Of a stretch of DNA of 64,000 nucleotides, positions 25,803 through 61,038 are shown piece by piece. A program made the position numbers and the translations under genes. The stretch's first letter is position 1. Each line of letters starts with the position of its first letter. Source of the stretch: Chloroflexota bacterium (GTDB lineage Bacteria > Chloroflexota > Anaerolineae > DUEN01); assembly GCA_013152435.1 (NCBI GenBank), contig JAADGJ010000062.1:18672-82671 (forward strand). The letters are read 5' to 3'. The notes beneath the pieces were generated by a model, which ran no database searches, was not told the origin of the DNA, and was given only the letters and a program-made list of their open reading frames with translations.

Positions 25803-26321
25803 GTGAGTGAATTGTATCAGAATCCCGGGGAACACACAAAAGACGAGGCGCCGCGCCTGTTGGTCGATGCCATGCTGGGCAGGCTGGCGCGCTGGCTCCG
25901 CCTGCTGGGCTGCGATGCCGTGCTGGCTCCCAACGACGCGACCGATATGGAGCTGGTGCGGCGCGCTCGCGCCGAGGGACGCACCATCCTGACGCGGGAT
26001 ACCGCCCTCGCGCGGCGACGCGGCGTGGCCGTGTTGCTGGTCGCCAGCATGGAGTTGACGGCCCAGCTCCGGCAGGTGGTCGGGCAGCTGGGGATCGGTC
26101 GGGAGCGCATCGGCACGCGCTGCCTGGTCTGCAATCACGAGCTCGTTTCCCTGAGCCGGGAGGACGCCCGCGGTCGGGTCCCCCTCTACGTGTGGGAGAC
26201 GCAGCATCAGTTCCACTATTGTCCGCAATGCGATCGGGTCTACTGGGCGGGCACGCACTGGGAACAGATGCGCGCCCGGCTGGATGCCATACTGGACCCG
26301 GACGACCGGACGAGCCGGTGA
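25803..26321 (+). CDS. Mut7-C RNase domain (DUF82) protein with a C-terminal zinc ribbon
   Basis: RLLVDAMLGRLARWLRLLGCDA is the conserved Mut7-C N-terminal block. The C-terminal motifs CLVCNHEL...YCPQCDRVYW form a zinc ribbon. The ORF starts with GTG, so the start is uncertain. Confidence 0.7.
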   Translation: MSELYQNPGEHTKDEAPRLLVDAMLGRLARWLRLLGCDAVLAPNDATDMELVRRARAEGRTILTRDTALARRRGVAVLLVASMELTAQLRQVVGQLGIGRERIGTRCLVCNHELVSLSREDARGRVPLYVWETQHQFHYCPQCDRVYWAGTHWEQMRARLDAILDPDDRTSR

Positions 26322-28192
26322 TCGATCGTCACCGCGCTCCACGGCAGGACCAGCGGATCTCCCAACGGGACCAGATCCGGCCCGGCGTAAAGCCCGATGC
26401 GAAGGCTGTACGGGCCGGGCGGGAGGGTATCCGGCAGGGGGATTGAGTGGCGGTCGCGCAGCACCTCGCCGGGCTGCCACAGCGACGTGGGGTAGTACAT
26501 CCCGCCGGGGGGGGCGTCGTGCTGTCCGATCTTCTCCCCATTTCCCGCCAGCAAGTGCACAAAGGACGTGTAGTCCCGTTCCAGGGACCTCTTCGGCTCC
26601 CAGTAGAGCGTCAGCTCTAGCGGCTGCCCCGGCTGCGGATCGGGCGTGTCGGTTGCCACGGCCAGCAGGATAAGGGCGTCCCCCACGACGCCCAATGGCT
26701 CACCGGGCGGCCTGGTCACGCTCCCCTCGACCTGCACGACGGCTCCCACGGGCCGTAAATCGAAGCGCACGTCCAGCCCCGGCATCGGCTTGACCAGGAA
26801 GACCGGACGCCCCGTGTCCAGGGCGGACGCCGTCACCTGGCCCACGTTGAGCCATCCCGGTCGCATCACCATCAGGGGGAAGAGCCCGGTGAGATCCGGC
26901 CGTCGATGTTCCACCTGCTGGAGGTAGATCAGCGGCACCATCTCATCGCGATCGTTGCTGACCAGGATCGCCTGCTGGGGCAGCGGCTCGCTCAGGATGT
27001 TCTCCCAGAACGTTCGGGCCTCTCGATCGGCGCTCCGGTCCACGCGCGGGAAAAAGGTCACCATGAGGAAGATCGGCAACAGGAGTCCCGCGGCCGCGAT
27101 CGCGAGCGCCAGCGCCCGTCTCCATCGAATCGCCAGCGTCGCCAGCGCGGAGAGCCCCACGCCGGCCCATAGGGCTGCGATGAGATAGACCGGCACGTAC
27201 AGGACGTACACGTCGCCGATGCCGTAGAACAGGTTGAAGCCCACCTGCGCCAGGAGCATGAGGCCGGTGGGCGCCAGGAGGTCCCAGCTTCTCCGCTCGA
27301 TCATCCAGGCCAGCCCGATGATGGCCAGGGCCAGACCTATCTCGCTCAGGTTTTGGGATATGAGGGAGAGGGCGGCGGGGATCTGTCCCCAGGCCGCCGC
27401 GGGCGTCAGCAGCTCCCCGGCGAAGACGCGTCCCGTCACGAACGCCAGGAAGCCGTCCAACGAGCGATCGTACAGGGGGAGCGTCTCGCCGGGGCCGAGC
27501 GGGACCCACAGGTACGGCGTGGCCGGCGCCCGCAACGGGATGTACAGGTAGAGCAGTTGGGGCAGGATCAGACCGGCCAGCATCCTCCCCACCGTGCCAC
27601 GATCCACGGCGGGACGCTTCAGCCAGGCCCACGCCAGCAATCCAGGCAGCCAGAGGATCGTCGTGCGGTGGTGGGCCAGGCCGAGCCCGACGACCCAGGC
27701 CAGGAGCACCGGGGCTCGTTGGCCTTCATCCTCCCGCACGATCAGCCACAGCGCGCAGGCCAGCAAGAGCGCGTGCAGCGTGTACACCTCGGCGATGACG
27801 GCCTGGGACCAGAAGGTGGGATTGGCCGCGAATGCCAGCGTCGCGCTCGCGGCGGCCAATCGTCGCGCCGAAAGGGGTAGCCGGGGCGACACGCGGCTGA
27901 TCATCCCCAGGGCGACGAGGTAGCCGATGCCCACGGCCGTCCCGCCCCAGGCGGCCGATAGGAGGTTCATGCGCCAGGGGGGCGTGCCCAGGACAAGCAG
28001 GTGGCTCCACAGCCAGCCCAGCAGGAGGTATAGAGGGTATCCCGTGGGGTGTGCCAGCCCCGCGATCCACGCCGCGACCTGGAACTCGGCCGGATCGCCG
28101 AAGAGGAGCCCCGGGGCCAGCGTGCGCAGGTAGAGGATGCCGGCGGACAGGCCGCATCCCGCCGCCAGCCAGCGATCCACCCTCCGGCTCAT
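26240..28192 (-). CDS. GT-C-fold polytopic membrane glycosyltransferase-like protein (DUF2723/PMT-like) with a C-terminal beta-rich module
   Basis: Real start is the ATG at 28192 (MSRRVDRW...), which overlaps the upstream gene's stop as ATGA. It has ~12 TM helices with PMT/ArnT-like N-terminal loops, then a soluble C-terminal domain containing LELTLYWEP...DYTSFVHLL...YYPTSLWQPGEVLRDRHSIPLPDTLPPGPYSLRIGLYAG. Confidence 0.65.
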   Translation of the reverse strand: MSRRVDRWLAAGCGLSAGILYLRTLAPGLLFGDPAEFQVAAWIAGLAHPTGYPLYLLLGWLWSHLLVLGTPPWRMNLLSAAWGGTAVGIGYLVALGMISRVSPRLPLSARRLAAASATLAFAANPTFWSQAVIAEVYTLHALLLACALWLIVREDEGQRAPVLLAWVVGLGLAHHRTTILWLPGLLAWAWLKRPAVDRGTVGRMLAGLILPQLLYLYIPLRAPATPYLWVPLGPGETLPLYDRSLDGFLAFVTGRVFAGELLTPAAAWGQIPAALSLISQNLSEIGLALAIIGLAWMIERRSWDLLAPTGLMLLAQVGFNLFYGIGDVYVLYVPVYLIAALWAGVGLSALATLAIRWRRALALAIAAAGLLLPIFLMVTFFPRVDRSADREARTFWENILSEPLPQQAILVSNDRDEMVPLIYLQQVEHRRPDLTGLFPLMVMRPGWLNVGQVTASALDTGRPVFLVKPMPGLDVRFDLRPVGAVVQVEGSVTRPPGEPLGVVGDALILLAVATDTPDPQPGQPLELTLYWEPKRSLERDYTSFVHLLAGNGEKIGQHDAPPGGMYYPTSLWQPGEVLRDRHSIPLPDTLPPGPYSLRIGLYAGPDLVPLGDPLVLPWSAVTIDHRLVRSSGSSMASSRARICSQCVPAQ

Positions 28193-30975
28193 GGCGTCGG
28201 CTCCAACCTCACCCAGTCCACGGCGGCCGCCAGCGCCCGGCGGTCCGGGTTGCGCCCGATGCGGAGATAGGCCCCGCCGGATCGGACGACCTCCGCGGCG
28301 CTCCCGGGCGGCGCCCCCTTCACACCGATCAGCGCGTGGGAGGCGCCCGGCACCATCCTGGGATCCTGCCCCGCGCCGATGGTCTGCAGCGCGGCCCATG
28401 CCTGGTCCGTCAGGTGATCGATGGCCGGACCTCGCGTGGCCACGACTACCAGCATGCCGTCTGGCACGTCCTGCAGGAACTGCGCCAGCCGCTCGGCCTC
28501 GTAGATGTTGGCGGCGGTGTCGAACCCTCGCTTCTCCAACAGGCGACCGTCGCGGGGATCCACCACGGCCACGTTGTACCCGCGTCGTCCGGCCGAGGCG
28601 TCCACCCGCTCGCCCGCGTCGTCCTCCAGCGTGATGTAGGCGAAATCGGCCGATGCGTTGATCTCGATGTCCACCGGCGTTTCCACGCCCGTCTGCCCGA
28701 TGCGCGCGTCGGCCGGGAGCACATCGCGAGGGCGGGCCGCCCAGGCGAACTCCAGGGCGATCCGGTTGAGTCCACTCCGCACGATCCCCGCTGGGACCTG
28801 GACCTCGTAGGTCTCCCAGTCGGCGGCCAGTGTGATCCGATCCCCCACCGGCCGGCCGTTGAGCAGCACCCGCATGTGTTGAGGAGGGGCATCGGGGTAG
28901 GCGAAGGGATGGACGCGCAGGGAGAGCCGGTAGGGGGGCGCCGGCGATGTCAGGCGTATCGGCAGGAACAGGCGCGCCCGTCGTGCCCCCGCCCAGTTGG
29001 CCGTGACCCCGAAGATCTGCTCGTCGTCGTGCCAGCCCTCGCCGCGATAGGGGGCCGATCCCTCGACCCCGAGGTCCAGCTCGAAGTCCGGGCGCCCTTC
29101 CGGCTGATAAACCCGGTAGGCCTGCACGCCATCGCGATCGTAGAACGGCTGGCGGTCGACCGGCAGCAGCTCCAGCGTGTAGTCTCGGACGGCCGCGTAG
29201 GTGTCCGCGTAGGGGAACCGGCCGGGGATGGGCGGCAGGACGATGAGGTAGCGCACGTCGTAAAGATACATGAGATCGGCCGCCTGGGCGCGCGCGGCCG
29301 CGTCCACCTCCGGCGGGACTGGCCGCCCGAACTCCGTTTCCGTGATGGCCTGGAACAGCGGCAGGCGGCGGAAATACGCCATCTTGAACTCAGGGGCACG
29401 GCTGATGTTTCCGCCCAGCATGGGCTTCCCGTGCACCGTCTGGTAGAACTGCACCTGCGTTCGCTCCGATCCGAGGACGCCGAAGGAGTTGCGCCACCCC
29501 AGCGGCAGTTGTAGGAGGGCGAAGTCCCCCGGCTCGTTGGCGATCTGCTCGTAGATCGGAGGCACGCGGGCGTCGGTCAGCGGGAGGGGCACGGCCGCGT
29601 GCTCGAACAAGATCGCCGCGGCCAACAGCCCGGCCAGCGCGCCGGCGATCCCCTCGCGTCGATGGCCGGGTGAGAGCCTGCGGATGGCCCACGCGATGGC
29701 ATAGGCGGCCAGCACCGCGATCCCCAGCATCAGGATCACGCTGTTGCGGTTGGGAGCCCGGTTGGCCTTGACGAAAGGGATATAGTGTAAGAGCGCGAAG
29801 GGCATGGGGAACGTGACGCCGCGGTCCCCCAGCAAGCGGTCCAGGCTAAACTCGTATCGGCCGTTGATCTGAAGCAGCGGTCCCAGGCAGAACGCCCCGA
29901 AGAGGACCGCCACCCAGCGCCAGGGACGGCCCCGCTTCCAGGCGGCCACAGCCCCGATGACGGCCAGCGCCAGGGTCACCCATCCGACGAACACGGTGTT
30001 GATGTCGGAGAAGCGCGCTGTGCCCTCCTCCACCGCCCGCAGCGCGCGGGGCCACTCCTCGCCCCAGAGGGGATGGAGGGCGGTGGGCGTGATGAACCCC
30101 AGCAGATCTGTGCTGAGCTTCAGGCCCTCTCCCCATCCCTCCAGCGCGTAGTCGCCGCTCACGAATTCACGCACGATGGGCACCAGCGCCGGGCTCCAGA
30201 TGAGGGCGGCCACCACGGCCACGATGGCCATGCGGGCTGCCAGCGAGGCGATCTCGCGTCCCGCGTCCTTAGGCTGTTTGTGGGCGCGCACGGATTGCGC
30301 CAGACGGAACCCCAGAAGCACCACGGTCAGGATCGCCAGGAAGACGGCGAAGATCATCTCGGCCAGCGCGGCCAACGCCAGGAAGAACCCGGCCAGGGAT
30401 GCATCCCGCCATCCCGGGCGACGCAGCGTGCGTATGAGGTACAGGGCGTAGAAGGGGATCCACTGGGTGGTCACCATGTCGTAATGCCCCAGCGCGGCGT
30501 AGATGGCCCGGTTGGATCCGAAGGCGTAGATCAGGCCGGCGATCAGCGGGACCAGGTGGCCGAGGGTCCCGGACGGCAGGCGGTGCTCATCGGCCAGCAA
30601 CTGGCGCACGAGCAGGTAGGTTCCATAGCCGCTGAGGGTCGTCGCCAGGATCAGCGTGGCGTTGGAGGCGGGCACCACTCCCCACGCCAGCAGCATCGGC
30701 AGGGCCATCAGCGCGTTGAAGAAGTTGTACGTGTACAGGATCAGGTCAATGCCCAGCGGATACCAGATGAGGTCGGTGTGCAGGGGGGAGGTGTGCAGGT
30801 CCAGGAGGGCGTGTTTGAAATACCAGATGTTCCAGAGGAACGTGGACTCGTCAAAGGCCCAGGTCGCGCTGCCGGGCGTGTGGGTGGCGAAGCGCAGGAG
30901 CAACGGGTAGCTCAAGAGAAGAGCCAGGATCAGGAAGGCGGCCGGGATCAGCCACTGCCATCGCTTGCGTATCAT
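28189..30975 (-). CDS. Large (928 aa) polytopic membrane protein with a GT-C/YfhO-like N-terminal domain and a large extracytoplasmic C-terminal domain
   Basis: The N-terminal ~470 aa are multi-TM. The C-terminal ~450 aa are soluble. The extreme C-terminus ([49 protein letters not shown]) tentatively resembles an ILEI/FAM3-like domain. It is translationally coupled to the flanking GT-C genes. Confidence 0.6.
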
Positions 30976-31002
30976 ATCCTCCCACTCGCGTGCGCCATGG
31001 GG

Positions 31003-33408
31003 TTAGGGCGCCAGGGTCACCGAGAGCTCAATGCGATCCGTCAGCGGCTGGCCGGCCTCGTCCAGGATCGACAGCCGCTCCCCGGTGCGCCAGTCGTACC
31101 AGCCCAGCGCGATGGTGTAACGCCCGGCGGGCGCCCCGGGCGGCAAGGCGACCTCCACCTGATCGCGCACCGGCACCCCGGGCGGCCAGGCATCCGTCGG
31201 GAACAGCCCGGCGACCGGAATGGTGTCCGCCTGGGTGACGAGCTCGTTCTCCTGGTTGATCAGGTGCACGAACATCGTGTACGACTTCTCCGGTAGTCGC
31301 TTGAAGCGCCACACCGTGTCGATGATCACCCGGGCTGGGTCGCCGATGGCCGGCCGGGTCTGGATGTCCAGCAGTTGCAGTCCCTCGCTGAACTCCGCCG
31401 GGACGACGCGCGGCAGCTCGAAATCGGGATCGGGGCCGCCCGGCGATAGCCGAACCTCCGCTACCCCCGGGTAATCCATGCCGACGCGCACGGCGTAAAG
31501 CCCGAACGGCGCGTCCTGGCCGATGGTGACCCGTTGCCAGGTCGCCACCACGTCTCCCGCGTGCCACTCCCCGTAGCGATAGGGCAGCGTCCCCGTCCAC
31601 ACGCCGCGTGGTATCCCCTCCGCATCCTCCACCACCAGCTGCACCGAGGGGGCCTCCGTGGGGGGCACATCCCCGGGATCATCCACCATCCAGTAGAGGG
31701 TCACCTCCAACGCGCCGCCGGGCCGCGCCTCGCCGGCGATGTCGTATCCGACCAGTCGGGGCAGCCCCTGGCCGGGCAATCCCTGGGTGCGGGCAGGTGG
31801 CCCCCCTTGATCGACGCGGTAGACCTCCAGTCCCGGCTCCCCTCTGGGGCTCTTCACCACGGCCAGCGGCGTCATCACGGGCAGCAGGCGTTGTAACCGT
31901 TCCCGATCCGGCATGGCCGAGTTGCCCAACAGGTAGATCGCCCCGCCGGGCGGCGGCATAAGGAGCGCCTTCCTGGCGTCGAACCATCGCAGCTTCGGAT
32001 CGCTGCGATCGAAGAACTCGGTCAGCGGCACCTCCTCGTACAGGAGCATGAACGAGGGATGGCGGTAGATATCGGCCGAGAGGTAGGCCAGTTGCTCCGG
32101 CTGGTTGCGCTTTAGCCAACGCGCCGCGGCGACCACATCTCCATCGAACGCCTCGAACGCGCCCGCGGAGCGTCCCCACGACACGAAGTACCCCCACCAG
32201 TTCAGCGTGGCATGGAAGATGAGCGCGCCGGCCAGCACCGCGGCGAAGGCCGTCTGTCGGTCCTTGGGGTTTACCCGGGCCCGCGCCCACTCCGCCACCT
32301 GCCAGGCTCCGATGGCCGGGAAGAAGTAGAGCCCGGGGAGCACTCCCAATGCTCGCGGCAGCGCGGGAATGCGGTCCACGGCCAGGAAGGTGGGGATCAT
32401 CATGACGGGCCACCACAGGAGGAGGAAGAGGAACCGCCGTCTGCGCCACTGTTGGATCAGATAGAGCACGCCGACGATGGCCAGGGCGCCGGTGATCACG
32501 TCGAACACTGGACGGCCCGGCAGGTTGTAGAACCAGTCCCGGTCCCCCAGCCCCGCCACGAAGAACTGCAACGTGTTGCCGAACAGCGCCAATACCGATT
32601 TCACGATCGGATTGCCGGAGCTGACGTGCGGGTTGCCGACGAACACCTCGCCCGCGCGAGAGGTGAAGCTGCCGGGGTGCTGGATGAAATAGCGGAACAG
32701 GGGGAGGAAGATCACGGTGGCGGCCGCGTACATGGCCAGGATGCCGCCCGGGAAGCGGCGCAGGATGGATGGCCGTCCCCGGCGGCCGTTGATCCACCAC
32801 TCGACGGCCAGATAGAGCGCCAGGAAGCAGGGCACCAGCCGGGAGGCGGTGTAGAAGTACAGGTTGATCCCCATGGCGACGCCGGATCCCACCATCCAGC
32901 GCCAATCTCGCCGGTTGATCCCCCGCCAGAACGCCCAGAAGCCGATGGTGGTCATCAGCGGCGTGAACACGCCCCGCACCCCGAAGCGGCTGAAGTGCAC
33001 ATGCCAGAAGCTGGTGGCCAGGAACCCGGCGGCCAGCAGCGGCACGGGGGTGTCCTCCAACGGGGTGCGGCGCAATAGCTCCTTGCCCAACCAATACGTC
33101 ATGGGCACGGTGATCAGCCCGGCGACGACGGAGGGGAAACGCACGGCGAACTCGTTAACGCCGAAGAGGAGGAAGCTGAAGGCGACCAGGAACATGTGCA
33201 GGCCCTCGCGCCCGTAGTTGGCGGGGAAGAAGACCTGCCCTCGCCCGGCGAGGACGTCGAGCGCGTCCAGCCCGTCGACCGCCTCATCGCCGAAGAGGCC
33301 GGGTGGGATAGTCCCGATCCGCCACAGCCGGAAGGCCACGGCGACGACGATCAGGAGAAACAGTGGGCTGATCGGCCAACGCCGACGGAGAAAGGATTTC
33401 ATGTCCAT
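31003..33408 (-). CDS. PMT/ArnT-family (GT39/GT83-like) polyprenyl-phosphate-sugar-dependent glycosyltransferase with a duplicated C-terminal module
   Basis: The N-terminal motif IPPGLFGDEAVDGLDALDVLAGRGQVFFPANYGREGLHMF is characteristic of the first periplasmic loop of GT-C mannosyl/arabinosyl transferases. It has ~12 TM helices, and its C-terminal domain carries two copies of the TLYW...FVHL...GLYD-type module. Confidence 0.7.
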   Translation of the reverse strand: MDMKSFLRRRWPISPLFLLIVVAVAFRLWRIGTIPPGLFGDEAVDGLDALDVLAGRGQVFFPANYGREGLHMFLVAFSFLLFGVNEFAVRFPSVVAGLITVPMTYWLGKELLRRTPLEDTPVPLLAAGFLATSFWHVHFSRFGVRGVFTPLMTTIGFWAFWRGINRRDWRWMVGSGVAMGINLYFYTASRLVPCFLALYLAVEWWINGRRGRPSILRRFPGGILAMYAAATVIFLPLFRYFIQHPGSFTSRAGEVFVGNPHVSSGNPIVKSVLALFGNTLQFFVAGLGDRDWFYNLPGRPVFDVITGALAIVGVLYLIQQWRRRRFLFLLLWWPVMMIPTFLAVDRIPALPRALGVLPGLYFFPAIGAWQVAEWARARVNPKDRQTAFAAVLAGALIFHATLNWWGYFVSWGRSAGAFEAFDGDVVAAARWLKRNQPEQLAYLSADIYRHPSFMLLYEEVPLTEFFDRSDPKLRWFDARKALLMPPPGGAIYLLGNSAMPDRERLQRLLPVMTPLAVVKSPRGEPGLEVYRVDQGGPPARTQGLPGQGLPRLVGYDIAGEARPGGALEVTLYWMVDDPGDVPPTEAPSVQLVVEDAEGIPRGVWTGTLPYRYGEWHAGDVVATWQRVTIGQDAPFGLYAVRVGMDYPGVAEVRLSPGGPDPDFELPRVVPAEFSEGLQLLDIQTRPAIGDPARVIIDTVWRFKRLPEKSYTMFVHLINQENELVTQADTIPVAGLFPTDAWPPGVPVRDQVEVALPPGAPAGRYTIALGWYDWRTGERLSILDEAGQPLTDRIELSVTLAP

Positions 33409-33409
33409 G

Positions 33410-34252
33410 TCAGTCTGGAACGGCGATGAGGTAGCGGTGGTGCGCCCAGATCGCCTTCACCCACCAGGGCAGCGGGGCACGTTCAAGCCACGCGTGGCGC
33501 ATCACCCGTTCGTACAGGTCCGGCTCTTTCCCCAAATAGTAGGCCATCGTGGACCATTGCCAGTTGTCGCCGCTAAATCGGGCGTTGAGTCGCGATGAGC
33601 GGATCCCGAGGCGCCGCAGCACCTCCGTGGCGGGCATCACCGTGTCAGGCCAGGGCGGGACGTCCAACACCCCCTGTTCCACCACGCGGGCGCCGGCCCC
33701 CTCGATCAACCGACGGATGTACCCCATGCGCGTCCATTGCTCGTCCACCGTTCGGAAGAAATCGCGGTCGATGAGGTACTTGCGCATGAAGTAGCCCACC
33801 TGCCAGCGGTTCGGCATGGCCACGAATACGACCTTGCGGGAACAGCGCACCAGCTCGCGCAACAGATCGCCTGGGTTGGGCAGATACCAGAGGCCGGCCC
33901 ACTCCCAGCATAGGTCGAAGGAGCGATCGTCGAAGGGAAGGGGATACCAGCCGGATTCGCTCACGTCCACCAGCGCCACGTCCAGCCCCAGCTCATCCCA
34001 GATGCGCTGCACGCCGGCCAGCCGCTCCGGCTCATCGTCGACCAGGGTGACCTCGCAGCCGGCCTGGGCCAGGACCACGCTGTTGATCCCGCTGACGCCG
34101 GCCATGCCGTACAGGGGCGCCTCCAGGACGCTCTGGACGTGGAATCGCTTGCGCAGGTGGTCCAGGAAATCGTTGAGGACGAAGCGCTCGTAAACCAGCC
34201 CCAGCCCCTCGTCGTAGTCGGTCAGGTAGCGTTTCCAGTCGGGTTTGGCCAC
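33410..34252 (-). CDS. Class I SAM-dependent methyltransferase
   Basis: Has the Rossmann motif VLEAPLYGMAGVSGINSVVLAQAGCEVTLVDDEPERL. A 2-nt gap separates it from the downstream GT-C gene. Confidence 0.75.
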   Translation of the reverse strand: MAKPDWKRYLTDYDEGLGLVYERFVLNDFLDHLRKRFHVQSVLEAPLYGMAGVSGINSVVLAQAGCEVTLVDDEPERLAGVQRIWDELGLDVALVDVSESGWYPLPFDDRSFDLCWEWAGLWYLPNPGDLLRELVRCSRKVVFVAMPNRWQVGYFMRKYLIDRDFFRTVDEQWTRMGYIRRLIEGAGARVVEQGVLDVPPWPDTVMPATEVLRRLGIRSSRLNARFSGDNWQWSTMAYYLGKEPDLYERVMRHAWLERAPLPWWVKAIWAHHRYLIAVPD

Positions 34253-34267
34253 GGTGACTCCCCGGCG

Positions 34268-35488
34268 TCAGTGGGCGGTATCTTCCGGTTCCGACGCTTC
34301 GCCGTCTTCCGGGGCGAAGGTGACGACCAGCCGGTCGCCATCGTAGCGAGCCCCCACCACCTCGAGCCCGGCCAGGACGCGAGGCAGCATCAGGTTTCGC
34401 TTCCAATTCCCGATGCGGATCACCAGTTCGTCGTGAGCCGTCTTCGTCAGATGGATCCGGGAGCGGTCGGCCAGGGGCAGCGGCAGGCTCAGGTAATATC
34501 GATCGCCTCGCTTGGTGATCCGCTGCGTTCGGCCCCGATAGAACACCTGCGCCGGATCCCGGTCGCCGAAGATAGCCGTCGCCATCTTGCGTAACATCTC
34601 GGGGCCCACCACCTCCTGATCGAAGAGCGGGACGTCGAAGATGGGTAGCGGGCTGAACGTCTCCTCGATCGTGCGATGGTAGCGTTCCTGGATATCCTTC
34701 CACGTGGCGAAATAGCTGTCCCCGACCCGGTCGGGGATCATGCGGTTGCAGATGATGGCGTCCGTGGCGTATCCGTAGAGGTTCAGGTAGGTGAACGCTC
34801 GTTGTGCTTCCTTGATCACCATCTTCTCAGGGTTGAGCACCAGTCGGGCGGTGGTGCGCTTCGGGTTGCTCAGCAGACCATGCATGCGATCGAGCTGTCG
34901 GAGGAGTTCGGCCGCCGCGTCGAACACGGCCTCGTCGGGCAGAGGGACATCTGTGACGGCCTTGAGGAGGGGACGCGCCACCTGCATCGCTTTGCGCTCG
35001 ATGGGGAAGATCTTCTCCAGATACCAGCGCGCCATCTCAGGAAAGGCCAATAGTTGCAACGTGGCCCCCGTCGGCGCGCAATCCACGACGATCACATCGT
35101 ACTCGCCCAGATCGTTCAGATGGGTGATCTGCATGAGGCTGGCCAGCTCCTCCATGCCGGGGAGGACGCTGGTCTCCTCGGCAAGCAGTTCGTCCATGCC
35201 GCGCCAGGCGAAAACGGCGGCCAGGTACTCCTGGACCTTGCCCCAATACTTCTCCATCTGGTACAGGAGGTCGATCTCCTGCCCCCATAGGTTCGACGCG
35301 ATCTGGGTCGGCTCCGGCCCGATGGAGCAATCGAAGCTGTCCGCCAGGCTGTGCGCCGCGTCTGTACTTAACACGATGGTGCGGTACCCTAGCTCGGCGC
35401 AGAGCACCGCGGTCGCCGCGCTGACGCTGGTCTTCCCGACTCCTCCTTTGCCCGTGTACAGGATGATGCGAGCCTGCTCATCCCTCAT
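34268..35488 (-). CDS. ArsA/GET3-family P-loop ATPase with a C-terminal HSP20-like domain
   Basis: Has the P-loop GKGGVGKTSVSAATAV and the DAAHSLADSFD switch. The C-terminal ~100 aa are a beta-sandwich-like extension. It is the first gene of the operon that continues into the methyltransferase and the three GT-C genes. Confidence 0.8.
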   Translation of the reverse strand: MRDEQARIILYTGKGGVGKTSVSAATAVLCAELGYRTIVLSTDAAHSLADSFDCSIGPEPTQIASNLWGQEIDLLYQMEKYWGKVQEYLAAVFAWRGMDELLAEETSVLPGMEELASLMQITHLNDLGEYDVIVVDCAPTGATLQLLAFPEMARWYLEKIFPIERKAMQVARPLLKAVTDVPLPDEAVFDAAAELLRQLDRMHGLLSNPKRTTARLVLNPEKMVIKEAQRAFTYLNLYGYATDAIICNRMIPDRVGDSYFATWKDIQERYHRTIEETFSPLPIFDVPLFDQEVVGPEMLRKMATAIFGDRDPAQVFYRGRTQRITKRGDRYYLSLPLPLADRSRIHLTKTAHDELVIRIGNWKRNLMLPRVLAGLEVVGARYDGDRLVVTFAPEDGEASEPEDTAH

Positions 35489-37998: not shown

Positions 37999-40704
<2,706 letters not shown>

Positions 40705-40991
40705 ATCACACCATCCATGGAACGAGATCGCTTGGCAAAGGGTCGAAACTGATGACAGTATACGCAGAAACCTGCCGGGCGTCCAAAAGGTGAAGCGCCG
40801 TGGGAATATGGAGGAGACCACAGCAGCCCGGTGAGGGAGATGAACACAAGGGGCTCGCTTATCGTTGGAGAGATCGGCCTCTCCGGGGGTAGATCGATGG
40901 GGCTGTAGCACGCTCACGCTCAGCTCACGTCTCCACGTGGCGTCGCCTGGGGGGCGTGGGCGGGAAAGCGAGCGGGGCCGGTGTTCGCGAG

Positions 40992-41016
40992 AAGGGGGCC
41001 GAATGGTTCGGCCCCT
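40992..41016. repeat. Palindromic hairpin element, copy A (GGGGGCCGAAT-G-GTTCGGCCCC)
   Basis: An 8-10-bp GC-rich stem with a 3-nt loop. It is near-identical to copy B, ~300 bp away, within the acnA upstream non-coding block. Confidence 0.5.
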
Positions 41017-41293
41017 ATTCGCATCAACTGAACAGCATAAGCGAAGCCCCCGCCTGTCGCTTTTTCCCTCCACGGGCGGTCGCGCCTGAAAGGGGTGGTG
41101 CGGAGGAAACCCCTCTGCAGAAAAACGCTTTCTCTCGCCTTTTCCCCGCCTGGTTTGGAGCTTTGGCCGGTGGCCTCCGGCCCCACGGGGCAGGTGAGGG
41201 GCTGAAAATAGATTTCTTCGGAGGGGCGGTAGCCCCTCCGAGCCACCCCGGAGATGCGGGGCCGCGCTTCCGTATCGCTTAATCTGATACCAA

Positions 41294-41318
41294 TGGGGGC
41301 CGAATAGTTCGGCCCCCA
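41294..41318. repeat. Palindromic hairpin element, copy B (GGGGGCCGAAT-A-GTTCGGCCCCC)
   Basis: A 10-bp stem with a TAG loop. It lies 65 nt downstream (minus strand) of the ABC permease stop. It may act as the operon terminator despite having no U-tract. Confidence 0.5.
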
Positions 41319-41382
41319 TGGCGGGTGGTGGAAGTTGGGTGATCGAGCGGTTGTGAGTCGAGCCTTTGCGGGTTCGGCGTAT

Positions 41383-55255: not shown

Positions 55256-56011
55256 GTGCAGAGCACGACGTCAACGACGCGATCGGATGAGGGCGCTCAG
55301 CGGCAGACGGTGCGGAGCCTGTCTGTGTGCATGCCCGCTTATAACGAGGAGGCGAATCTCCCCGGCATGATCGCGGATGTGGTGAGGATCATGCGGGAGC
55401 GCTGCGATGATCTGGAGGTCGTCGTCACCAACGATGGCAGCACGGATCGGACCGGCGAGGTGTTGGAGGAACTCGCTCGCCAGTATCCGGAGTTGAAGCC
55501 GGTCCATCACGAGGTGAACCAGGGATACGGGGCGGCTGCCTATACGGCCATCAGTCACGCCACCAAGGAGATCATCCTTTTCACCGATTCCGATCGCCAG
55601 TTCGTGTTGGAAGAGATCGATCGCTTGTTGCCCCATTTGAACGAGGCGGACATGGTTGTGGGCTATCGTGCCCCCCGACGCGATCCGTTCCTGCGTGTGT
55701 TGTTTGGCCACGGGTGGAGCGCCCTAGTCACGCTGTTGTTCGGCTATACGGCGCGCGACATCGACTGCGCCTTCAAGCTGTTCCGGCGTGACGTGTTCGC
55801 GGCGGTCGGGCCGAGCATCCGATCTCGTGGGGCGACTTTCAGCGCGGAGTGGCTGGTGCGCACGAAGCGGGCGGGGTATCGCATCGTCGAGGTGCCCGTC
55901 AGCCATCTCCCCAGGCAAGCCGGGTCGCCAACCGGCGCGCGGTGGGATGTCATCTCCCGGGCATTTCGTGAACTCTGGCAATTCCGAATGCAACTCTGGC
56001 GGGAAGGTTAA
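55256..56011 (+). CDS. GT2-family polyprenyl-phosphate sugar synthase (Dpm1/GtrB-like)
   Basis: LSVCMPAYNEEANL...VVVTNDGSTDRT...NQGYGAA plus DxD (DSD) in FTDSDRQ. It is 251 aa with no TM anchor. Confidence 0.85.
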   Translation: MQSTTSTTRSDEGAQRQTVRSLSVCMPAYNEEANLPGMIADVVRIMRERCDDLEVVVTNDGSTDRTGEVLEELARQYPELKPVHHEVNQGYGAAAYTAISHATKEIILFTDSDRQFVLEEIDRLLPHLNEADMVVGYRAPRRDPFLRVLFGHGWSALVTLLFGYTARDIDCAFKLFRRDVFAAVGPSIRSRGATFSAEWLVRTKRAGYRIVEVPVSHLPRQAGSPTGARWDVISRAFRELWQFRMQLWREG

Positions 56012-57230
56012 ATCCCTGCGCATCCTGTTCATCGCACCTACTGGCTTCTTCGCGGACTACGGGTGCCACGTGCGTATTCGCGGCCATGCGGAGGCCCTCC
56101 AGCGGCGTGGCCACCGGGTCCGAATCGTCACATATCCGGCGGGGCGAGATGTGCCTGACCTGCGGATCACACGCCCGCCTATCCTCAGTCGTCATCGGCA
56201 GATGCCGGTGGGCTCCTCCTGGCGCAAGATCCTCCTGGATGCCATCCTGTTCCCGGTCGTCTTGAGCGCGGCCTGGCGGTTTCGCCCCCACGTGGTCCAT
56301 GCTTTTCTGCACGAAGGGGCGCTTCTGGGGCTGTTCCCCGCCCGCCTGGCTCGGGTCCCCCTGGTCTTCGACTTTCAGGGCAGCCTCACCAGCGAGATGC
56401 TCGATCACGGCTTTCTCTCCAGGCGCTCGCTCCTGGTCGGCGCATGGCGCCGCCTGGAGCGCTGGATCGATCATCGGCCCGACCTGATCCTGGCCAGCTC
56501 CCGACATGCGGTGGATCTCCTGTCCGCCCAGTTCGGGGTGGCGCGCCGCCGCGTGCGCGCCGTGCCGGACAGCGTGGACCCCCGCCAGTTCCACCCGGCC
56601 ACGGTCGAGGATGTCTCCCGGTTGGAAGCCCTGCGCGCTCGCTGGCATCTCCCCGCCGATCGGCCATTGGTGGTCTATCTGGGTCTGCTGGCTCCCTATC
56701 AGGGCATCGATCTGCTGTTGGAGGCCGCGCGCATCCTGCTCCAGATGGGGGATTCGTCTCCTGATGCTCGCGCGCATTTCCTGATCATGGGATTCCCTCA
56801 CGTGGATCGTTATCGCCGGCAGGCCCGGGCGTTGGGGATTGAAGAGCACGTCACGTTCACGGGGCAGATTCCGTTCGAGGACGCCCCGGCCTGTCTGCGG
56901 CTGGGCACCCTCGCGGTGGCCACCAAGCTCTCCGAGACGGAGGGGAGTGGGAAGATCCTGACGTATATGGCGACGGGGTTGCCGGTGGTCGCCTTTGACA
57001 CCCCGGTGCATCGGGAGTATCTGGGTGAGTGGGGGATTTATGCCCGTCCGGGGGATCCCGCCGAGCTTGCCGAGGGGATCCGGTCCCTGCTGGCTTCCCC
57101 GGCGCGAGCGCGCCGCCTTGGGACGATGCTGCGCGAGCGCGCCGTGCGCTCGTTCAGTTGGGATGTGGCCGCGCGGCAAATACTGGATGCCTACACGGAG
57201 GTTTGCGGCGCCCCTGGGGACGTGCTATAA
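55966..57230 (+). CDS. GT4-family glycosyltransferase
   Basis: Has the N-terminal LRILFIAPTGFFADYGCHVRIRG and the C-terminal EG...GK retaining-GT4 motif region (ETEGSGKILTYMATGLPVVAF). The start is uncertain (a GTG ~55966 overlaps the GT2 end). Confidence 0.7.
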
Positions 57231-57392
57231 TGCTTCCCGTAAGTCAAGGCCGGCGGATCGCATGATCCGCCTTTCTGCATGTTCGGGCGATGAGCGGGTC
57301 ATCCCCCGCCCTGTGGGATCGCAGACCGCCGGCGTGGGTGCAGGCGTGGCTCGGACCTGCATCATGAAGGGTGCCATTCACGAAGGTCGCTC

Positions 57393-59861
57393 ATGCAAGG
57401 GCTAAGCGAACGGCCGGTCGCCACCGAGACGATGTTCCCACGGCAGGCCCATCGACTGTATATCCGATGGTGGCAGTGGAGCCTGGCCGCTCTCCGGTCT
57501 CGTGGCGTCCTCGCGATCGTGCTGGGATATCTGGTGTTGGCCGTCAGCTATGGGGTGATCATCCCCCTGTGGGAGGCTGACAACGAGTGGGCGCATTACC
57601 GGTACGCCCGTTACATCGTCACTCACCACGCGCTGCCCGATCCCACGGAGCGTAAGCCTTCCGAGCGTCCCCCCCTGTTCGCCCGACGGAAGTGGCCAGC
57701 TCGGGAGTGGCATCAGTTCAGCCAGCCGCCGCTTTACTACCTCCTGGCCGCGGCGGTGATATCGCCGGTGGACATCAGCGATAACCTGTGGCCGGTGCCC
57801 AATCCGTACGTCCACAGTAGCACCGGCGTGGGCGGGGTGAACTTCGCCGTCCATGGCCCGGAGGAGTCGTTCCCCTATCGGGGCACGGTGCTGGCCGTCC
57901 ATCTGATCCGCCTGCTATCCGCTGTGTTGGGGCTGGTCGCCCTGGCCGGCGTCTACCGGCTGGCGCAAACCATCGCTCCGGGGCGGCCGGAGCTGGCCTG
58001 GGGCACGTTGGCGCTTACCGCCTTTTCCCCTCAGTTCCTGTTTGCGGCCAGCACGGTGAACAATGATGTCCTGGTCACCGCGGCCGGCGCGTGGACCCTG
58101 GTGTACGGCCTTCGCGTTGTTCAGTCTCCACGACGTTTGAGGAACTGGGGCGGGGCAGCGCTATGGCTCAGCCTGGCGATCCTGGCCAAATATAACGGGC
58201 TCGTGCTGGCGCCGTTCGTCGCGCTCTGTTTCCTCATCGGCTTCGTCCGATTGGCCCGGGAGCGGGAGGTGCGGTATCTGGCGCGGGCGTTATTGGGGTC
58301 GGGGATCGTCGTCTTCCTCCTCACGGGTGGATGGCTGATCAGCAACCGCGTGCGCTACGGCCGCTTCATCACGCGCTATCCCAATCTTGTGGATCGGTTC
58401 GTGAGCGATCTGAGCAGCCTGGGTGGAACCGATCTAAGTTGGTTGACGCGAGAGCGTCTGTGGCAGGCTGCGGTGTACTCCTTTGAGACGTACTGGGCTT
58501 CCTTTGGCTGGGGCAACCTGGGGCTGCCCAAGCTCGTCTACCAGGTGCTGGCCGTCTTCTGCCTCATGGCGGTCGCGGGGATCGCCTTGCGGTTGAGCCG
58601 ATCTCTGTTCGCCCGCAGAATCGAGCGGACGGTGTGGATCAGCCTGCTGCTCTTGGGGCTCGTGATGGTGGCCTGGCTTGTGGGCGCATACAAGGCGTTG
58701 CGCACCGGAGAGGGACGCCTGCACGGCCGCTATCTGTTGCCCGTGTTGCCGGCGATCAGCTTCCTTCTCGTGTGGGGGATCGGCGCATGGTCTTCGGGAC
58801 GTCGCCTGCGCTTCACCATGGCTGTCCTGGGCGGAGCGTTTCTCCTCTTCGCCGGGTGGACGGCGGCGGGCCCTTTGCGAGCCGCCTATGCGCCGCCGGC
58901 GTTCTCTACACAGGTCACCTTAGCTCCTGACGAGCGGCCTTTGGGGGCGCGCTTTGGGGAGAACGCGGAGCTGATCGCCTACACGATCTGGCCGGAGACC
59001 GTGTCCCCCGGGGAGGCTGTGGGCGTTCGGCTGCTCTGGCGTGTGTTGAAGCCGTTGGACCGCAACTATACGGTTGGAGTCCACGTCGTGGACGCGAGGG
59101 GTGTGAAGGTAGGGGAGACCAACATTTATCCGGGGCGCGGGAACTACGCCACGACGTTGTGGCGCCCGGGGGATGTCTTCCGGGAGACCTACTGGGTGGT
59201 CGTGCGGGAGCCCATCACGCGGCCGATCATGGGACACATTAAGGTGGCGTTGTTCATGGACGATGACACCCGGGAGCATCTTCCGGTCACGGATGCGCAC
59301 GGCAATCCGCTGGGTGGGGGCGTCTTTTTCGGCCGCATCAAGCTGGCGCCTTCCGAGCCGCCGACAGAGCCGTTGCCGGAGACCGGGCTGGCGCGGCTGG
59401 ATGATATCGCCTGGCTCAGCGAGGGGGACTGGCAGGCTGAGATCATGCCCGTGACGGCGGGCGAGACCTTTACCGTGACGTTGACGTGGCGCGCGCTGAG
59501 CAGGCCTGCGACGGACTACCAGGTGTTCGTGCATCTGGAGGGTCCCGATGGGCCTGTGGCGTTTGGGGACGGCCCGCCTGCCGGAGGAACGTATCCCACC
59601 GGCCTCTGGGATCGCGGTGAGCGCATCGTCGACGAGCATGTAGTGCGGGTGCCACCCGATCTTCCCGCCGGCACGTATGCGCTGGCGGTCGGCCTGTACG
59701 ACGCGGAGGGGCGCCGCCCGGCGACCTATGGCCCGGACGGCGAGCGGCTGCCTGCGGATCGGGTCGTCCTCGATCGCATTCGGGTGATCCGGCGGGATCA
59801 GAAAGCGTTCATCCCGCTCGTCACCCACCAGGAAGAGGTCAAGGGGCGCAAGAAGCGGTGA
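57393..59861 (+). CDS. Large GT-C-like polytopic membrane protein (DUF2142/ArnT-like) with a duplicated C-terminal module
   Basis: 822 aa. The N-terminal ~480 aa are multi-TM. The C-terminal domain carries two copies of the module shared with the 26-33 kb GT-C proteins (VRLLWRVL...YTVGVHVV...TTLWRPGDVF and TLTWRAL...DYQVFVHLE...YPTGLWDRGE...LPAGTYALAVGLYD). Confidence 0.6.
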   Translation: MQGLSERPVATETMFPRQAHRLYIRWWQWSLAALRSRGVLAIVLGYLVLAVSYGVIIPLWEADNEWAHYRYARYIVTHHALPDPTERKPSERPPLFARRKWPAREWHQFSQPPLYYLLAAAVISPVDISDNLWPVPNPYVHSSTGVGGVNFAVHGPEESFPYRGTVLAVHLIRLLSAVLGLVALAGVYRLAQTIAPGRPELAWGTLALTAFSPQFLFAASTVNNDVLVTAAGAWTLVYGLRVVQSPRRLRNWGGAALWLSLAILAKYNGLVLAPFVALCFLIGFVRLAREREVRYLARALLGSGIVVFLLTGGWLISNRVRYGRFITRYPNLVDRFVSDLSSLGGTDLSWLTRERLWQAAVYSFETYWASFGWGNLGLPKLVYQVLAVFCLMAVAGIALRLSRSLFARRIERTVWISLLLLGLVMVAWLVGAYKALRTGEGRLHGRYLLPVLPAISFLLVWGIGAWSSGRRLRFTMAVLGGAFLLFAGWTAAGPLRAAYAPPAFSTQVTLAPDERPLGARFGENAELIAYTIWPETVSPGEAVGVRLLWRVLKPLDRNYTVGVHVVDARGVKVGETNIYPGRGNYATTLWRPGDVFRETYWVVVREPITRPIMGHIKVALFMDDDTREHLPVTDAHGNPLGGGVFFGRIKLAPSEPPTEPLPETGLARLDDIAWLSEGDWQAEIMPVTAGETFTVTLTWRALSRPATDYQVFVHLEGPDGPVAFGDGPPAGGTYPTGLWDRGERIVDEHVVRVPPDLPAGTYALAVGLYDAEGRRPATYGPDGERLPADRVVLDRIRVIRRDQKAFIPLVTHQEEVKGRKKR

Positions 59862-60040
59862 TGACCCGCACCTTGCTGTGAAGTCACAGAGAGCGCTGGG
59901 GGAAAACGAAGAGGGGGGATCGTCGAGCGTAGGAACGGGCAATATGCCGGTGCGGAGCAGGACGAGTGCTCAGGCGGATGGCTCGTGGCACCCGGCTCTC
60001 CGTATCATTCGAGAAACTTTCCAATGCGAGAGGAGCGCTT

Positions 60041-60967
60041 ATGAGCAAGATCCTGGTTACAGGGGGGGCTGGATTCATCGGTTCTCACGTTGTGGATGCC
60101 TTCCTCGATGCCGGGCACGAGGTGGCGGTGATCGACAACCTGGTCACGGGCAAGCGGGAGAACGTGAATCCCAAGGCGAAGTTCTACGAGGTGGACATCC
60201 GGGACCAGGAGGCGGTGGAGGAGGTCTTCGCCGCCGAGCGGCCGGATGCCGTCTGTCACCAGGCCGCGCTGGCGAACGTGCGCGAGTCGTTGGAGAAGCC
60301 CATTGAGTATGGCGAGGTGAACATCCTGGGCTCTCTGGCGCTGCTGGAGGCGGCCCGCAGGCACGAATGTCGTCGCTTCATCTACGCGTCGACGGGGGGA
60401 GCCTGCTACGGTGAACCGGAGTTCCTGCCGGTCACGGAGGATCACCCGATCAATCCGCTGGATCCCTACGGTGCCAGCAAGCATGTGGTGGAGCATTATC
60501 TGTACCTGTATCGACATAATTATGGGTTGTCCTACGTGGTCTTGCGGTATCCCAACGTGTATGGCCCGCGCCAGGATCCCCTGGGCGAGGCGGGGGTTGT
60601 GGCGATCTTTACCGGCTTGATGCTGCAGGGTAAGCAGCCGACGATCAACGGCACCGGCGAACAGCAGCGCGATTTCGTCTACGTGGGTGACATCGCCCGG
60701 GCAAATGTGATCGCTTTGGAGCAGGGTGAGGGGATTTACAACATCGGCTCCGGCGTCCCGACCGATGTCAACACCATCTTCGCGGAGCTGAAGGAGATCA
60801 TCGGGTATCCGGGGGAGGCGCGTTATGGCCCGCCGAAGCTGGGCGAGGTGTTCCGTATCTACCTGGATGCCAGCAAGGCGCGCGAGGAGTTGGGATGGGA
60901 GCCGACGGTTCCTCTGAGGGAAGGCCTCACCCGAACGGTGGAGTTCTTCCGCCATCGTGAGGGATAA
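60041..60967 (+). CDS. galE: NAD-dependent epimerase/dehydratase (UDP-glucose 4-epimerase-like)
   Basis: ILVTGGAGFIGSH... Rossmann fold and the catalytic YGASK (YxxxK). The ATG at 60041 sits behind GAGAGGAG. Confidence 0.85.
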   Translation: MSKILVTGGAGFIGSHVVDAFLDAGHEVAVIDNLVTGKRENVNPKAKFYEVDIRDQEAVEEVFAAERPDAVCHQAALANVRESLEKPIEYGEVNILGSLALLEAARRHECRRFIYASTGGACYGEPEFLPVTEDHPINPLDPYGASKHVVEHYLYLYRHNYGLSYVVLRYPNVYGPRQDPLGEAGVVAIFTGLMLQGKQPTINGTGEQQRDFVYVGDIARANVIALEQGEGIYNIGSGVPTDVNTIFAELKEIIGYPGEARYGPPKLGEVFRIYLDASKAREELGWEPTVPLREGLTRTVEFFRHREG

Positions 60968-61038
60968 GAGGCGAGGGTGGCGAGTGTTCGGCGGCTCGTT
61001 CGCGGGCCGCCGAATTCATTTGTGCGAGGGGAATCCTC

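Follow-up and report, generated by a model that had tools for sequence, protein, structure and literature searches.

A previously unnamed Ig-like beta-sandwich module at the C-termini of Chloroflexota GT-C glycosyltransferases, a candidate acceptor- or glycan-binding domain

Three GT-C glycosyltransferases encoded in the 64,000-nt stretch of Chloroflexota DNA analysed here (the window) carry at their C-termini five copies of a genuine, previously unnamed Ig-like beta-sandwich domain of about 130 amino acids, with one copy in p719 and two each in p801 and p822. An earlier note on this DNA had described a recurrent module in three membrane proteins with the same 1 + 2 + 2 copies; the strings it quoted are present in the reading frames at 26240-28399 (minus strand), 31003-33408 (minus strand) and 57393-59861 (plus strand), and both BLASTP and HMM comparisons agree with it. 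We consider the chances about even that the domain serves polyprenyl-phosphate-sugar-dependent Chloroflexota GT-C enzymes as an accessory module, which would bind the acceptor or a glycan at their extracytoplasmic C-terminus; we infer both that it has a ligand and what this ligand is.

Pairwise BLASTP comparisons among the module copies gave E-values from about 1e-14 to 1e-3. The p719 module matched p822 copy 2 with E=5e-14 (C-terminal regions, composition-based statistics), p801 copy 2 with E=9e-12, p822 copy 1 with E=1e-11 and p801 copy 1 with E=1e-3, and the alignment of p801 with p822 spanned both copies (E=6e-11). When a five-copy HMM was run against the six-frame translation of the window, exactly the five copies were recovered, the next match having E=0.93, and no sixth copy was found in p928 or anywhere else in the window. 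An HMM derived from 412 copies in the database gave the five window copies scores of 44-130 bits (i-Evalues 4e-15 to 8e-42). The module is about 125-135 aa long, so that the length of about 80 aa given by the earlier note covers the conserved core only; within it, two Trp are near-invariant and the PT..W and G.Y motifs are conserved.

The high G+C content (0.647) is the sole point in favour of a compositional artefact, that is, of Pro/Gly/Ala/Arg-rich tails of a 65% G+C genome resembling each other with no real domain behind them, an explanation that we regard as next to impossible. The BLASTP E-values fall to 5e-14 under composition-based statistics, Trp, Tyr, Thr and His positions are near-invariant across the module alignments, and the beta-sandwich models are confident and consistent. 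In addition, the five-copy profile matched 26,102 clusters (50% identity clusters) at E<=1e-3 and 16,473 representative clusters at E<=1e-10. Since the two near-invariant Trp, PT..W and G.Y go together with a consistent predicted fold, the similarity is one of homology rather than composition; E-values, cluster counts, specificity of the five-copy HMM and structure models all oppose the artefact, which was dismissed. The earlier note's own worry, a likeness that would be compositional only, with no consistent structure and no family, was not borne out.

On the minus strand, p801 and p719 are encoded in one operon together with p928. The p801 gene (31003..33408) specifies a PMT_2-type GT-C core (Pfam PMT_2 E=1.4e-9, PMT E=2e-6), a soluble region and two modules. 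Copy 1 (31417..31773, aa 546-664) is degenerate, lacking FVHL and YPT, and scored 44.0 bits with the HMM (i-Evalue 3.6e-15); copy 2 (31009..31407, aa 668-800) is a canonical terminal copy with the motifs FVHL, TQAD, FPTDAW, LGWY and GERL (114.4 bits, i-Evalue 6.7e-37). The third large membrane protein of the operon, p928 (28189..30975), has an ILEI domain at its C-terminus (aa 798-888, Pfam ILEI E=4.2e-18) and no module: the module HMM gave E=2, and a Pfam match to DUF6541 was sub-threshold. The earlier note was right about the single module copy of p719 and probably wrong about the length of the protein. Because an ATG overlaps the p928 stop codon as ATGA (28189-28192), the reading frame first called as 719 aa (26240-28399) most likely starts at M70, and the corrected gene (26240..28192) would encode about 650 aa comprising a TMEM260-like core (formerly DUF2723; Pfam E=1.2e-26), a soluble region and one module. 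This canonical copy (26330..26704, aa ~566-690 of the 719-aa ORF; 125.6 bits, i-Evalue 2.4e-40) contains TLYW, FVHL, GQHD, YPTSLWQPGE and IGLY, and its AF2 model is an 8-strand sandwich with a pLDDT of 78.5. A methyltransferase gene (33410..34252, minus strand; Pfam Methyltransf_11 E=2.3e-7), separated by a 1-nt gap and directly upstream of p801, probably opens the operon.

The third host protein, p822 (822 aa, 57393-59861, plus strand), consists of a GT-C transmembrane core (57441..58889, aa 17-499) with 11 long helices, followed by two modules. As in p801, the first copy is degenerate and lacks FVHL: p822 copy 1 (58938..59351, aa 516-653, AF2 strands 515-651; 113.6 bits) is divergent, with VGVHVV and YPGRGNYATTLW in its sequence. 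It is nevertheless strongly conserved among p822 orthologues, with W549, P580, G583 and W590 invariant in a 72-sequence alignment. Copy 2 (59382..59792, aa 664-800, AF2 strands 667-799) is the canonical terminal copy (130.4 bits, i-Evalue 7.6e-42). A protein identical to p822 is on record at NCBI as a Chloroflexi MAG protein. Upstream of p822, on the same strand, lies a GT2 gene (55256..56011; Pfam Glycos_transf_2 E=2.5e-29) whose nearest NCBIfam models are dolichyl-phosphate hexose transferase, ArnC and PpgS, all below curated cut-offs; judged by this resemblance to polyprenyl-phosphate hexose transferases, its product may synthesise the lipid-linked sugar donor. Directly downstream there is a gene for a GalE-like NAD-dependent sugar epimerase (59966..60967, plus strand; Pfam Epimerase E=3.8e-70), with 219 bits for NCBIfam galE, under the 262-bit cut-off. 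No obvious GtrA-like flippase was seen beside the GT2/GT-C pair in the ORFs of 90 aa or more at 53-64 kb.

Pfam scores for the catalytic portions were 94.1 bits for p719 (TMEM260-like), 38.8 for p801 (PMT_2) and 45 for p822 (PMT_2), against cut-offs of 24.2 and 26.1, and the p822 core showed the GT-C membrane fold. Acidic residues with a putative catalytic role follow TM1 in all three proteins: in p822, E61 and E65 do not vary among 72 homologues, and P58 and H68 of the same loop are invariant too, while p801 has GDEAVDGLD and p719 GDPAEF at this place. The full-length AF2 model of p822 (pLDDT 91.4, pTM 0.86) has 11 TM helices and then two sandwiches, joined by short linkers (499 to 515 and 653 to 662). 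As an odd number of helices precedes the modules and the GT-C catalytic loop after TM1 faces outward, the p822 modules would lie outside the membrane, a topology taken from the AF2 helices of this one protein; by analogy, the modules of p719 and p801 would be extracytoplasmic as well. This supports the location that the earlier note had assigned to the module.

The note had also called the domain uncharacterised and beta-rich, and both descriptions hold. No Pfam-A 2025 or NCBIfam 20.0 model scored above its cut-off over the module in the window proteins, in 61 diverse copies or in consensus sequences; module-only fragments carried no precomputed Pfam assignment; and PDB sequence searches with the five-copy profile, a 61-copy profile and p822 copy 1 returned nothing below E=0.02. 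The Pfam, NCBIfam and PDB sequence searches likewise revealed no significant sequence relationship to a characterised CBM, and homologues are named solely 'GT family 39', 'ArnT family' or 'hypothetical'. The structure predictions consistently gave a two-sheet sandwich of 7-9 strands and about 100-130 aa with many Ig-like neighbours, that is, an Ig-like or E-set-type fold. Nearest to it were Ig-like domains of GH2 glycoside hydrolases and the Wzt carbohydrate-binding domain, and the glycan binders among its structural neighbours included the RbmA tandem pair and CBMs of agarases. Sub-threshold Pfam matches recurred for Wzt_C, NPCBM_assoc and DUF4832. The best Wzt_C score in the window was 24.1 bits (p822 aa 534-582) vs. 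the PF14524 gathering threshold of 30.4; Wzt_C appeared at E<1 in 6 of 61 diverse copies (best 2e-4), gave 17.3 bits with the consensus of p822-type copy 2 and reached E=1.7e-7 in 1 of 46 database proteins. Module consensus sequences matched MG2, ML and DUF4832 as weakly as Wzt_C. Membership in Wzt_C, MG2, ML, NPCBM_assoc or DUF4832 was rejected, all these matches being sub-threshold and in disagreement with one another.

The module is far more widespread than the earlier note, which took it to be specific to these GT-C enzymes, had assumed. It occurs in thousands of proteins of at least four GT-C Pfam families (PMT_2, PTPS_related, TMEM260-like and YfhO), usually as three C-terminal tandem copies and in a range from one to four. 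Every confirmed genome match was from Chloroflexota, among the matches listed from a pattern-biased scan with a consensus sequence; module-only fragment matches in a protein collection came from Chloroflexota and Myxococcales. In Myxococcales the module forms a standalone lipoprotein of about 180 aa, which is paired with HupE_UreJ_2, so it is not strictly GT-C-specific; these lipoproteins make up a divergent subfamily, perhaps with another function. Same-strand tandem arrays of module-bearing GT-C genes, as in the window, were present in 23 of 52 Chloroflexota loci, which fits with several enzymes acting on one substrate.

Evidence for function comes from the terminal copy. Across 128 proteins with three copies, the last one was the most canonical (median 160 bits vs. 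118 and 107), and it alone kept F47 (0.98), H49 (0.95), Q60 (0.97), D62 (0.99), D83 (0.98), Y105 (0.98) and R111 (1.00). The near-invariant F/H/Q/D/E/D/Y/R set, its E being E79, at 88-100% per position, is confined to the last copy across different catalytic families: in a random sample with PMT_2 (36), PTPS_related (8), TMEM260-like (5) and YfhO (2) catalytic domains, the terminal-copy residues were present in 43 of 46 or better. That the same residues recur across host families argues for a common ligand, one shared by terminal copies of different catalytic families. According to the AF2 register of the beta4-beta5 hairpin, H50/Q61 and F48/D63 (numbered as in the p719 fragment) would be neighbours across the strands, pointing away from the side that holds the hydrophobic core residues.

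If the module binds an acceptor or a glycan, the membrane core would transfer sugar from a lipid-linked donor at the outer face of the cytoplasmic membrane, over which the C-terminal sandwiches would be positioned. The polar/aromatic site of the last copy (F-x-H, Q-x-D, PT..W..GE...D, G-x-Y, R) would bind the acceptor and so keep it near the catalytic site; this acceptor would most likely be a glycan chain belonging to an envelope polymer or glycoprotein that the enzymes share. The degenerate inner copies would serve mainly as spacers or secondary contacts. Counted against acceptor binding is the p719 copy, which is without the Arg that is otherwise invariant in terminal copies, and the conserved H/Q/D/E/D residues might just as well coordinate a metal or form an interface within the protein.

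A purely structural role, as Ig-like spacers or oligomerisation elements that lack a specific ligand and project or stabilise the enzyme within a thick, multilayered envelope, seems fairly unlikely to us, since a passive spacer would not hold eight polar/aromatic positions at such levels in the last copy only and across catalytic families. We also consider it improbable that the terminal copy is an intramolecular lid, folding onto the outer loops of the GT-C core so that its conserved residues complete or gate the donor or acceptor site, e.g. by contacting the polyprenyl-phosphate head group. The pTM of the three-domain p822 model and its short linkers may suggest fixed packing of the sandwiches on the core, and phosphate or metal contacts could well be made by an invariant Arg and acidic residues; yet the same terminal-copy residues occur on four GT-C families with differing outer loops, a further soluble region of about 100-130 aa separates core and module in p801 and p719, and standalone lipoprotein versions exist. 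Quite unlikely, finally, is a metal- or lipid-binding domain, in which the H/Q/D/E/D cluster would hold a divalent cation or the sandwich a lipid tail like ML/NPC2: the similarities are all sub-threshold and are seen also with many unrelated sandwiches, canonical Chloroflexota copies have a single His, and the possibly different function of the Myxococcales lipoproteins weighs against it too.

Taken further, the acceptor- or glycan-binding reading leads to a bolder proposal, which we put forward tentatively and hold to be somewhat unlikely: the module would be a new, essentially Chloroflexota-specific CBM family in which the terminal copy recognises a single common envelope polymer, the arrays of module-bearing GT-C genes would encode extracytoplasmic machinery building the outer layers, of polysaccharide or glycoprotein, in these Gram-negative-staining, apparently monoderm bacteria, and the Myxococcales lipoproteins would be a recruited offshoot binding metal or another ligand. 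Layers of the multilayered Chloroflexota envelope have been 'suggested to be polysaccharides or proteins' (PMC13319060), and the module is concentrated, among the matches listed, in this phylum. A name for the domain would improve the annotation of thousands of 'hypothetical' or 'GT39' proteins, and the last-copy residue set is a concrete target for mutational and binding work aimed at identifying the molecules that these enzymes glycosylate.

Accessory binding modules outside the cytoplasm are already known from other GT-C enzymes, namely EmbC, AftD and protein O-mannosyltransferases with their MIR domain; new here is a module with no Pfam or NCBIfam model, no sequence-detectable solved relative and no description that we found, in at least 26,000 clusters at 50% identity. 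The MIR domain of the eukaryotic enzymes (PMC7759382) is a beta-trefoil placed in a loop, unrelated in sequence and fold to the C-terminal Ig-like sandwich. Ig-like domains of GH2 enzymes (e.g. 7RSK, 7CWD, 6HPD) share 6-15% identity and no motif likeness with the module; inside the soluble hydrolases to which they belong they are structural and have no ligand site of their own. The tandem FnIII-like biofilm matrix protein RbmA from Vibrio cholerae (4KKR, 4BE5) is secreted and not an enzyme appendage; its TM-score is low (0.35 on target) and its sequence shows no similarity (E=0.1-0.6). The Wzt C-terminal domain, which recognises O-antigen by its capped end (PMC9445017), is a beta-sandwich superposable on the module (PDB 6O14, 5HNO, 2R5O, 7K2T), but the module scores below the Wzt_C cut-off, and the Wzt domain is cytoplasmic and fused to an ABC-transporter ATPase, whereas the module is fused to GT-C enzymes, in tandem and apparently outside the membrane. 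In architecture the likeness is to mycobacterial EmbC, a GT-C enzyme with a C-terminal lectin-like CBM (PMC3044687), and to AftD, which also bears CBMs (bioRxiv 10.1101/2019.12.22.885152): as in the p822 model, a soluble, presumably extracytoplasmic domain lies C-terminal to a GT-C membrane core. There is no sequence relationship, as neither Arabino_trans_C nor any other CBM model matches the module even at E<=1, and while EmbC and AftD belong to Actinomycetota, the module is a Chloroflexota domain common to several GT-C families and arranged in tandem repeats.

Three GT-C glycosyltransferases encoded in the window, named here by ORF length as p719 (26240-28399, minus strand, 719 aa as first called), p801 (31003-33408, minus strand, 801 aa) and p822 (57393-59861, plus strand, 822 aa), were found exactly where the earlier note had placed them. 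The C-terminal module that it had proposed for all three was confirmed, with one copy in p719 and two each in p801 and p822 (BLASTP E values from 5e-14 to 1e-3). The p719 module matched copies 2 and 1 of p822 with E values of 5e-14 and 1e-11, and copies 2 and 1 of p801 with E values of 9e-12 and 1e-3, respectively; the p801-p822 alignment spanned both copies (E=6e-11). Eight columns are invariant in the five-copy alignment, two of them Trp. An HMM built from it, a check that had been suggested for this module, recovered exactly the five copies from a six-frame translation of the whole window; no further copy was found there (next match, E=0.93), and p928, a 928-aa membrane protein encoded between p801 and p719 (28189-30975, minus strand), was without the module in the same search. 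The five copies scored 44-130 bits against an HMM made from 412 database copies. Amino acid composition as the source of the similarity is refuted, and we leave it practically no probability.

The p719 module covers aa ~566-690 (26330-26704, minus strand). In p801 the two copies lie at aa 546-664 (31417-31773) and 668-800 (31009-31407), both on the minus strand, and in p822 at aa 516-653 (58938-59351) and 664-800 (59382-59792), both on the plus strand. These HMM boundaries define a domain of about 125-135 aa; the previously estimated ~80 aa is thus too short for the entire domain but holds for its conserved core.

The length of p719 itself had been over-extended. The first ATG of the ORF, at 28399, lies 210 nt within the upstream p928 gene, and the initial 69 codons (28193-28399) overlap the 3′ end of that gene. 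An in-frame ATG overlaps the p928 stop codon as ATGA at 28189-28192 (CC ATG AGC CGG AGG, encoding MSRR...), and on the basis of this overlap we place the start at M70, giving a protein of ~650 aa. The same overlap implies that translation of p928 and p719 is probably coupled. At its 3′ end (26240-26321) p719 overlaps a convergent Mut7-C RNase-domain gene (25803-26321, plus strand) by 82 nt, and its last ~27 residues, past the module, are only putative. The methyltransferase/GT-C operon is immediately preceded by a gene (34268-35488, minus strand) for an ArsA/Get3-type ATPase that ends in an HSP20-like domain. A 1106-aa aconitase ORF was also seen (37999-41319, minus strand), in which the Pfam Aconitase match begins only at residue 282; the N-terminal ~280 aa are either an unassigned extension or the result of an over-called start codon.

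By Pfam, p719 is a TMEM260-like protein (former DUF2723; E=1e-26), and p801 and p822 belong to PMT_2. The AlphaFold model of p822 (pLDDT 91.4, pTM 0.86; 72-sequence homologue alignment) has 11 long helices within aa 17-499, followed by beta-sandwiches at 515-651 and 667-799. All 72 aligned sequences share P58, E61, E65 and H68, which directly follow the first helix; in GT-C enzymes, as known from ArnT and PMT structures, the catalytic acidic loop occupies this position and faces away from the cytoplasm. With the N-terminus inside and 11 helices, the C-terminal modules of p822 would therefore be located outside the cytoplasmic membrane, and by analogy only, those of p801 and p719 may be as well. 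The module begins 15 residues past the last helix in p822, and p801 and p719 have an extra soluble region of ~100-130 aa between the last hydrophobic segment and the first module.

Structure prediction bore out the beta-rich character of the module: the isolated p719 copy was modelled as an eight-strand sandwich (pLDDT 78.5, from five sequences only), in line with the two sandwiches of full-length p822. Spo0M/arrestin-like and macroglobulin domains are lower-placed structural neighbours of this single copy. For the tandem pair, the top Foldseek match was RbmA, a biofilm protein of two domains (E=1e-6, with a TM-score of only 0.35). Pfam gave only sub-threshold matches to named families for the window copies, such as Wzt_C on p822 (24.1 bits vs. 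a cut-off of 30.4) and NPCBM_assoc on p801; weak matches among 61 diverse copies were scattered over Wzt_C (6), ML (5), MG2, DUF4832 and NPCBM_assoc (4 each), and module consensus sequences gave the same sub-threshold pattern. NCBIfam 20.0 gave no match, and profile searches of all PDB sequences nothing below E=0.02. As no match was significant at the sequence level, we assign the module neither to Wzt_C nor to another named family. Its Ig-like sandwich fold is a common one; in sequence it forms a family of its own, still uncharacterised, as had been supposed: it is absent from Pfam-A (2025 copy) and NCBIfam 20.0, sequence searches detect no relative of solved structure, and full-text literature searches yielded no published description.

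The family is large. Of 1.84 billion representative proteins searched with the five-copy profile, 26,102 matched at E<=1e-3, 16,473 at E<=1e-10 and 3,486 at E<=1e-30. Among the top 200, three copies were present in 134 proteins, two in 22 and four in 5, nearly always at the extreme C-terminus of proteins of ~900-1100 aa. N-terminal domains in a random 46 three-copy proteins were PMT_2 (36), PMT (12, overlapping), PTPS_related (8), TMEM260-like (5), YfhO (2) and STT3 (1). Existing annotations of the homologues go no further than 'glycosyltransferase family 39', 'ArnT family' or 'hypothetical'; p822 is identical to 'hypothetical protein GXP39_09125 [Chloroflexi bacterium]' of NCBI, the window being from a Chloroflexi MAG. 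A family-consensus scan with one genome per species, biased by its search patterns and hence no census, confirmed at least 52 module loci, all from Chloroflexota among the matches listed (Anaerolineae, Caldilineae including Caldilinea aerophila, Thermoflexales and Ardenticatenia). In 23/52 of the short loci listed (e.g., L010, L012, L015, L022), two or three module-bearing ORFs stand head-to-tail on the same strand, matching the window operon (methyltransferase, p801, p928, p719), which indicates that such paralogue arrays are a general feature.

Tandem copies are not equally conserved. In 128 three-copy proteins the canonical form is much the best preserved in the last copy (median 160 HMM bits, vs. 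118 for copy 1 and 107 for copy 2), and this copy alone keeps polar and aromatic residues at eight positions: F47 (0.98, vs. 0.34 and 0.23 in copies 1 and 2), H49 (0.95; R in copy 1, Q in copy 2), Q60 (0.97), D62 (0.99), E79 (0.88), D83 (0.98), Y105 (0.98) and R111 (1.00). Each of these residues was kept in at least 43 of 46 randomly sampled proteins across four catalytic families. Within the window, FVHL, Q/F-x-D, PT..W and G-x-Y are present in the single p719 copy, which is without the conserved Arg, and in copy 2 of both p801 and p822; copy 1 of each is degenerate. In the p719 model, strands 45-53 and 58-62 form the beta4-beta5 hairpin, on which the strand register predicts H50/Q61 and F48/D63 (fragment numbering) to be cross-strand neighbours, with V49 and L51 of the hydrophobic core on the other face; the long YPT..W.PGE loop appears to overlie the two pairs. 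A patch kept in one tandem copy, whatever the catalytic domain, is the signature of a putative binding site for a common ligand. Such conservation specific to the last copy speaks against a passive Ig-like spacer, which we regard as unlikely.

The module is not confined to GT-C enzymes, and the claim that it is specific to them was too narrow. Divergent single-copy versions occur as predicted lipoproteins of ~180 aa, with a signal peptide and an ...AACIERPFE lipobox, in Myxococcales/Deltaproteobacteria (including P0040, P0041 and P0045-P0047), all annotated as 'hypothetical'. An intramolecular lid that completes the active site would suit the high pTM of the p822 model; as the module occurs on four GT-C families, and on its own as a lipoprotein, we regard this as quite unlikely. 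The lipoproteins are His-enriched at the conserved-patch positions (WHIFVHLD...RIHAEHDP), and in two independent metagenome contigs a HupE_UreJ_2 membrane-protein gene directly follows (in L053, 6001-6549 and 6549-7583, with a stop/start overlap; adjacent coordinates in the second). These features hint at a metal-related role of the lipoprotein subfamily, and it is because of them that we considered a metal- or lipid-binding domain, very unlikely for the module as a whole.

We favour, with roughly even confidence, an extracytoplasmic acceptor-binding accessory module. The GT-C core would transfer a sugar from a polyprenyl-phosphate-sugar donor, the terminal sandwich would bind the acceptor, for which a glycan belonging to a shared envelope polymer or glycoprotein is the likeliest candidate, and the inner copies would serve as spacers. 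The p822 gene belongs to a small glycan-synthesis cluster (55256-61958, plus strand) encoding a GT2 similar to polyprenyl-phosphate hexose transferases, a GT4, p822 itself, a GalE-like epimerase and a second GT4; within NCBIfam the GT2 is closest, always below threshold, to dolichyl-phosphate hexose transferase, ArnC and PpgS, and no GtrA-like flippase was seen near p822 in ORFs of 90 aa or more. In the same operon as p801 and p719, p928 is a large multi-pass membrane protein (DUF6541 sub-threshold) with a soluble C-terminus of ~460 aa, which carries at the place equivalent to the module another domain, ILEI (PF15711; aa 798-888, E=4e-18), better known from eukaryotic FAM3/POMGNT1-type proteins.

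In practical terms, there is a large unnamed family to curate, and the last-copy residue set offers a handle on the glycosylation targets of the many Chloroflexota GT-C paralogues; the envelope layers of this phylum are not yet defined (PMC13319060). A GT-C enzyme with an accessory binding module of Ig-like sandwich fold on the outside is an arrangement already known. The p822 cluster, the ILEI domain of p928 and three precedents fit acceptor binding: EmbC with its lectin-like CBM at the C-terminus (PMC3044687), AftD with its CBMs (bioRxiv 10.1101/2019.12.22.885152), and Wzt, whose CBD recognises the cap (PMC9445017).
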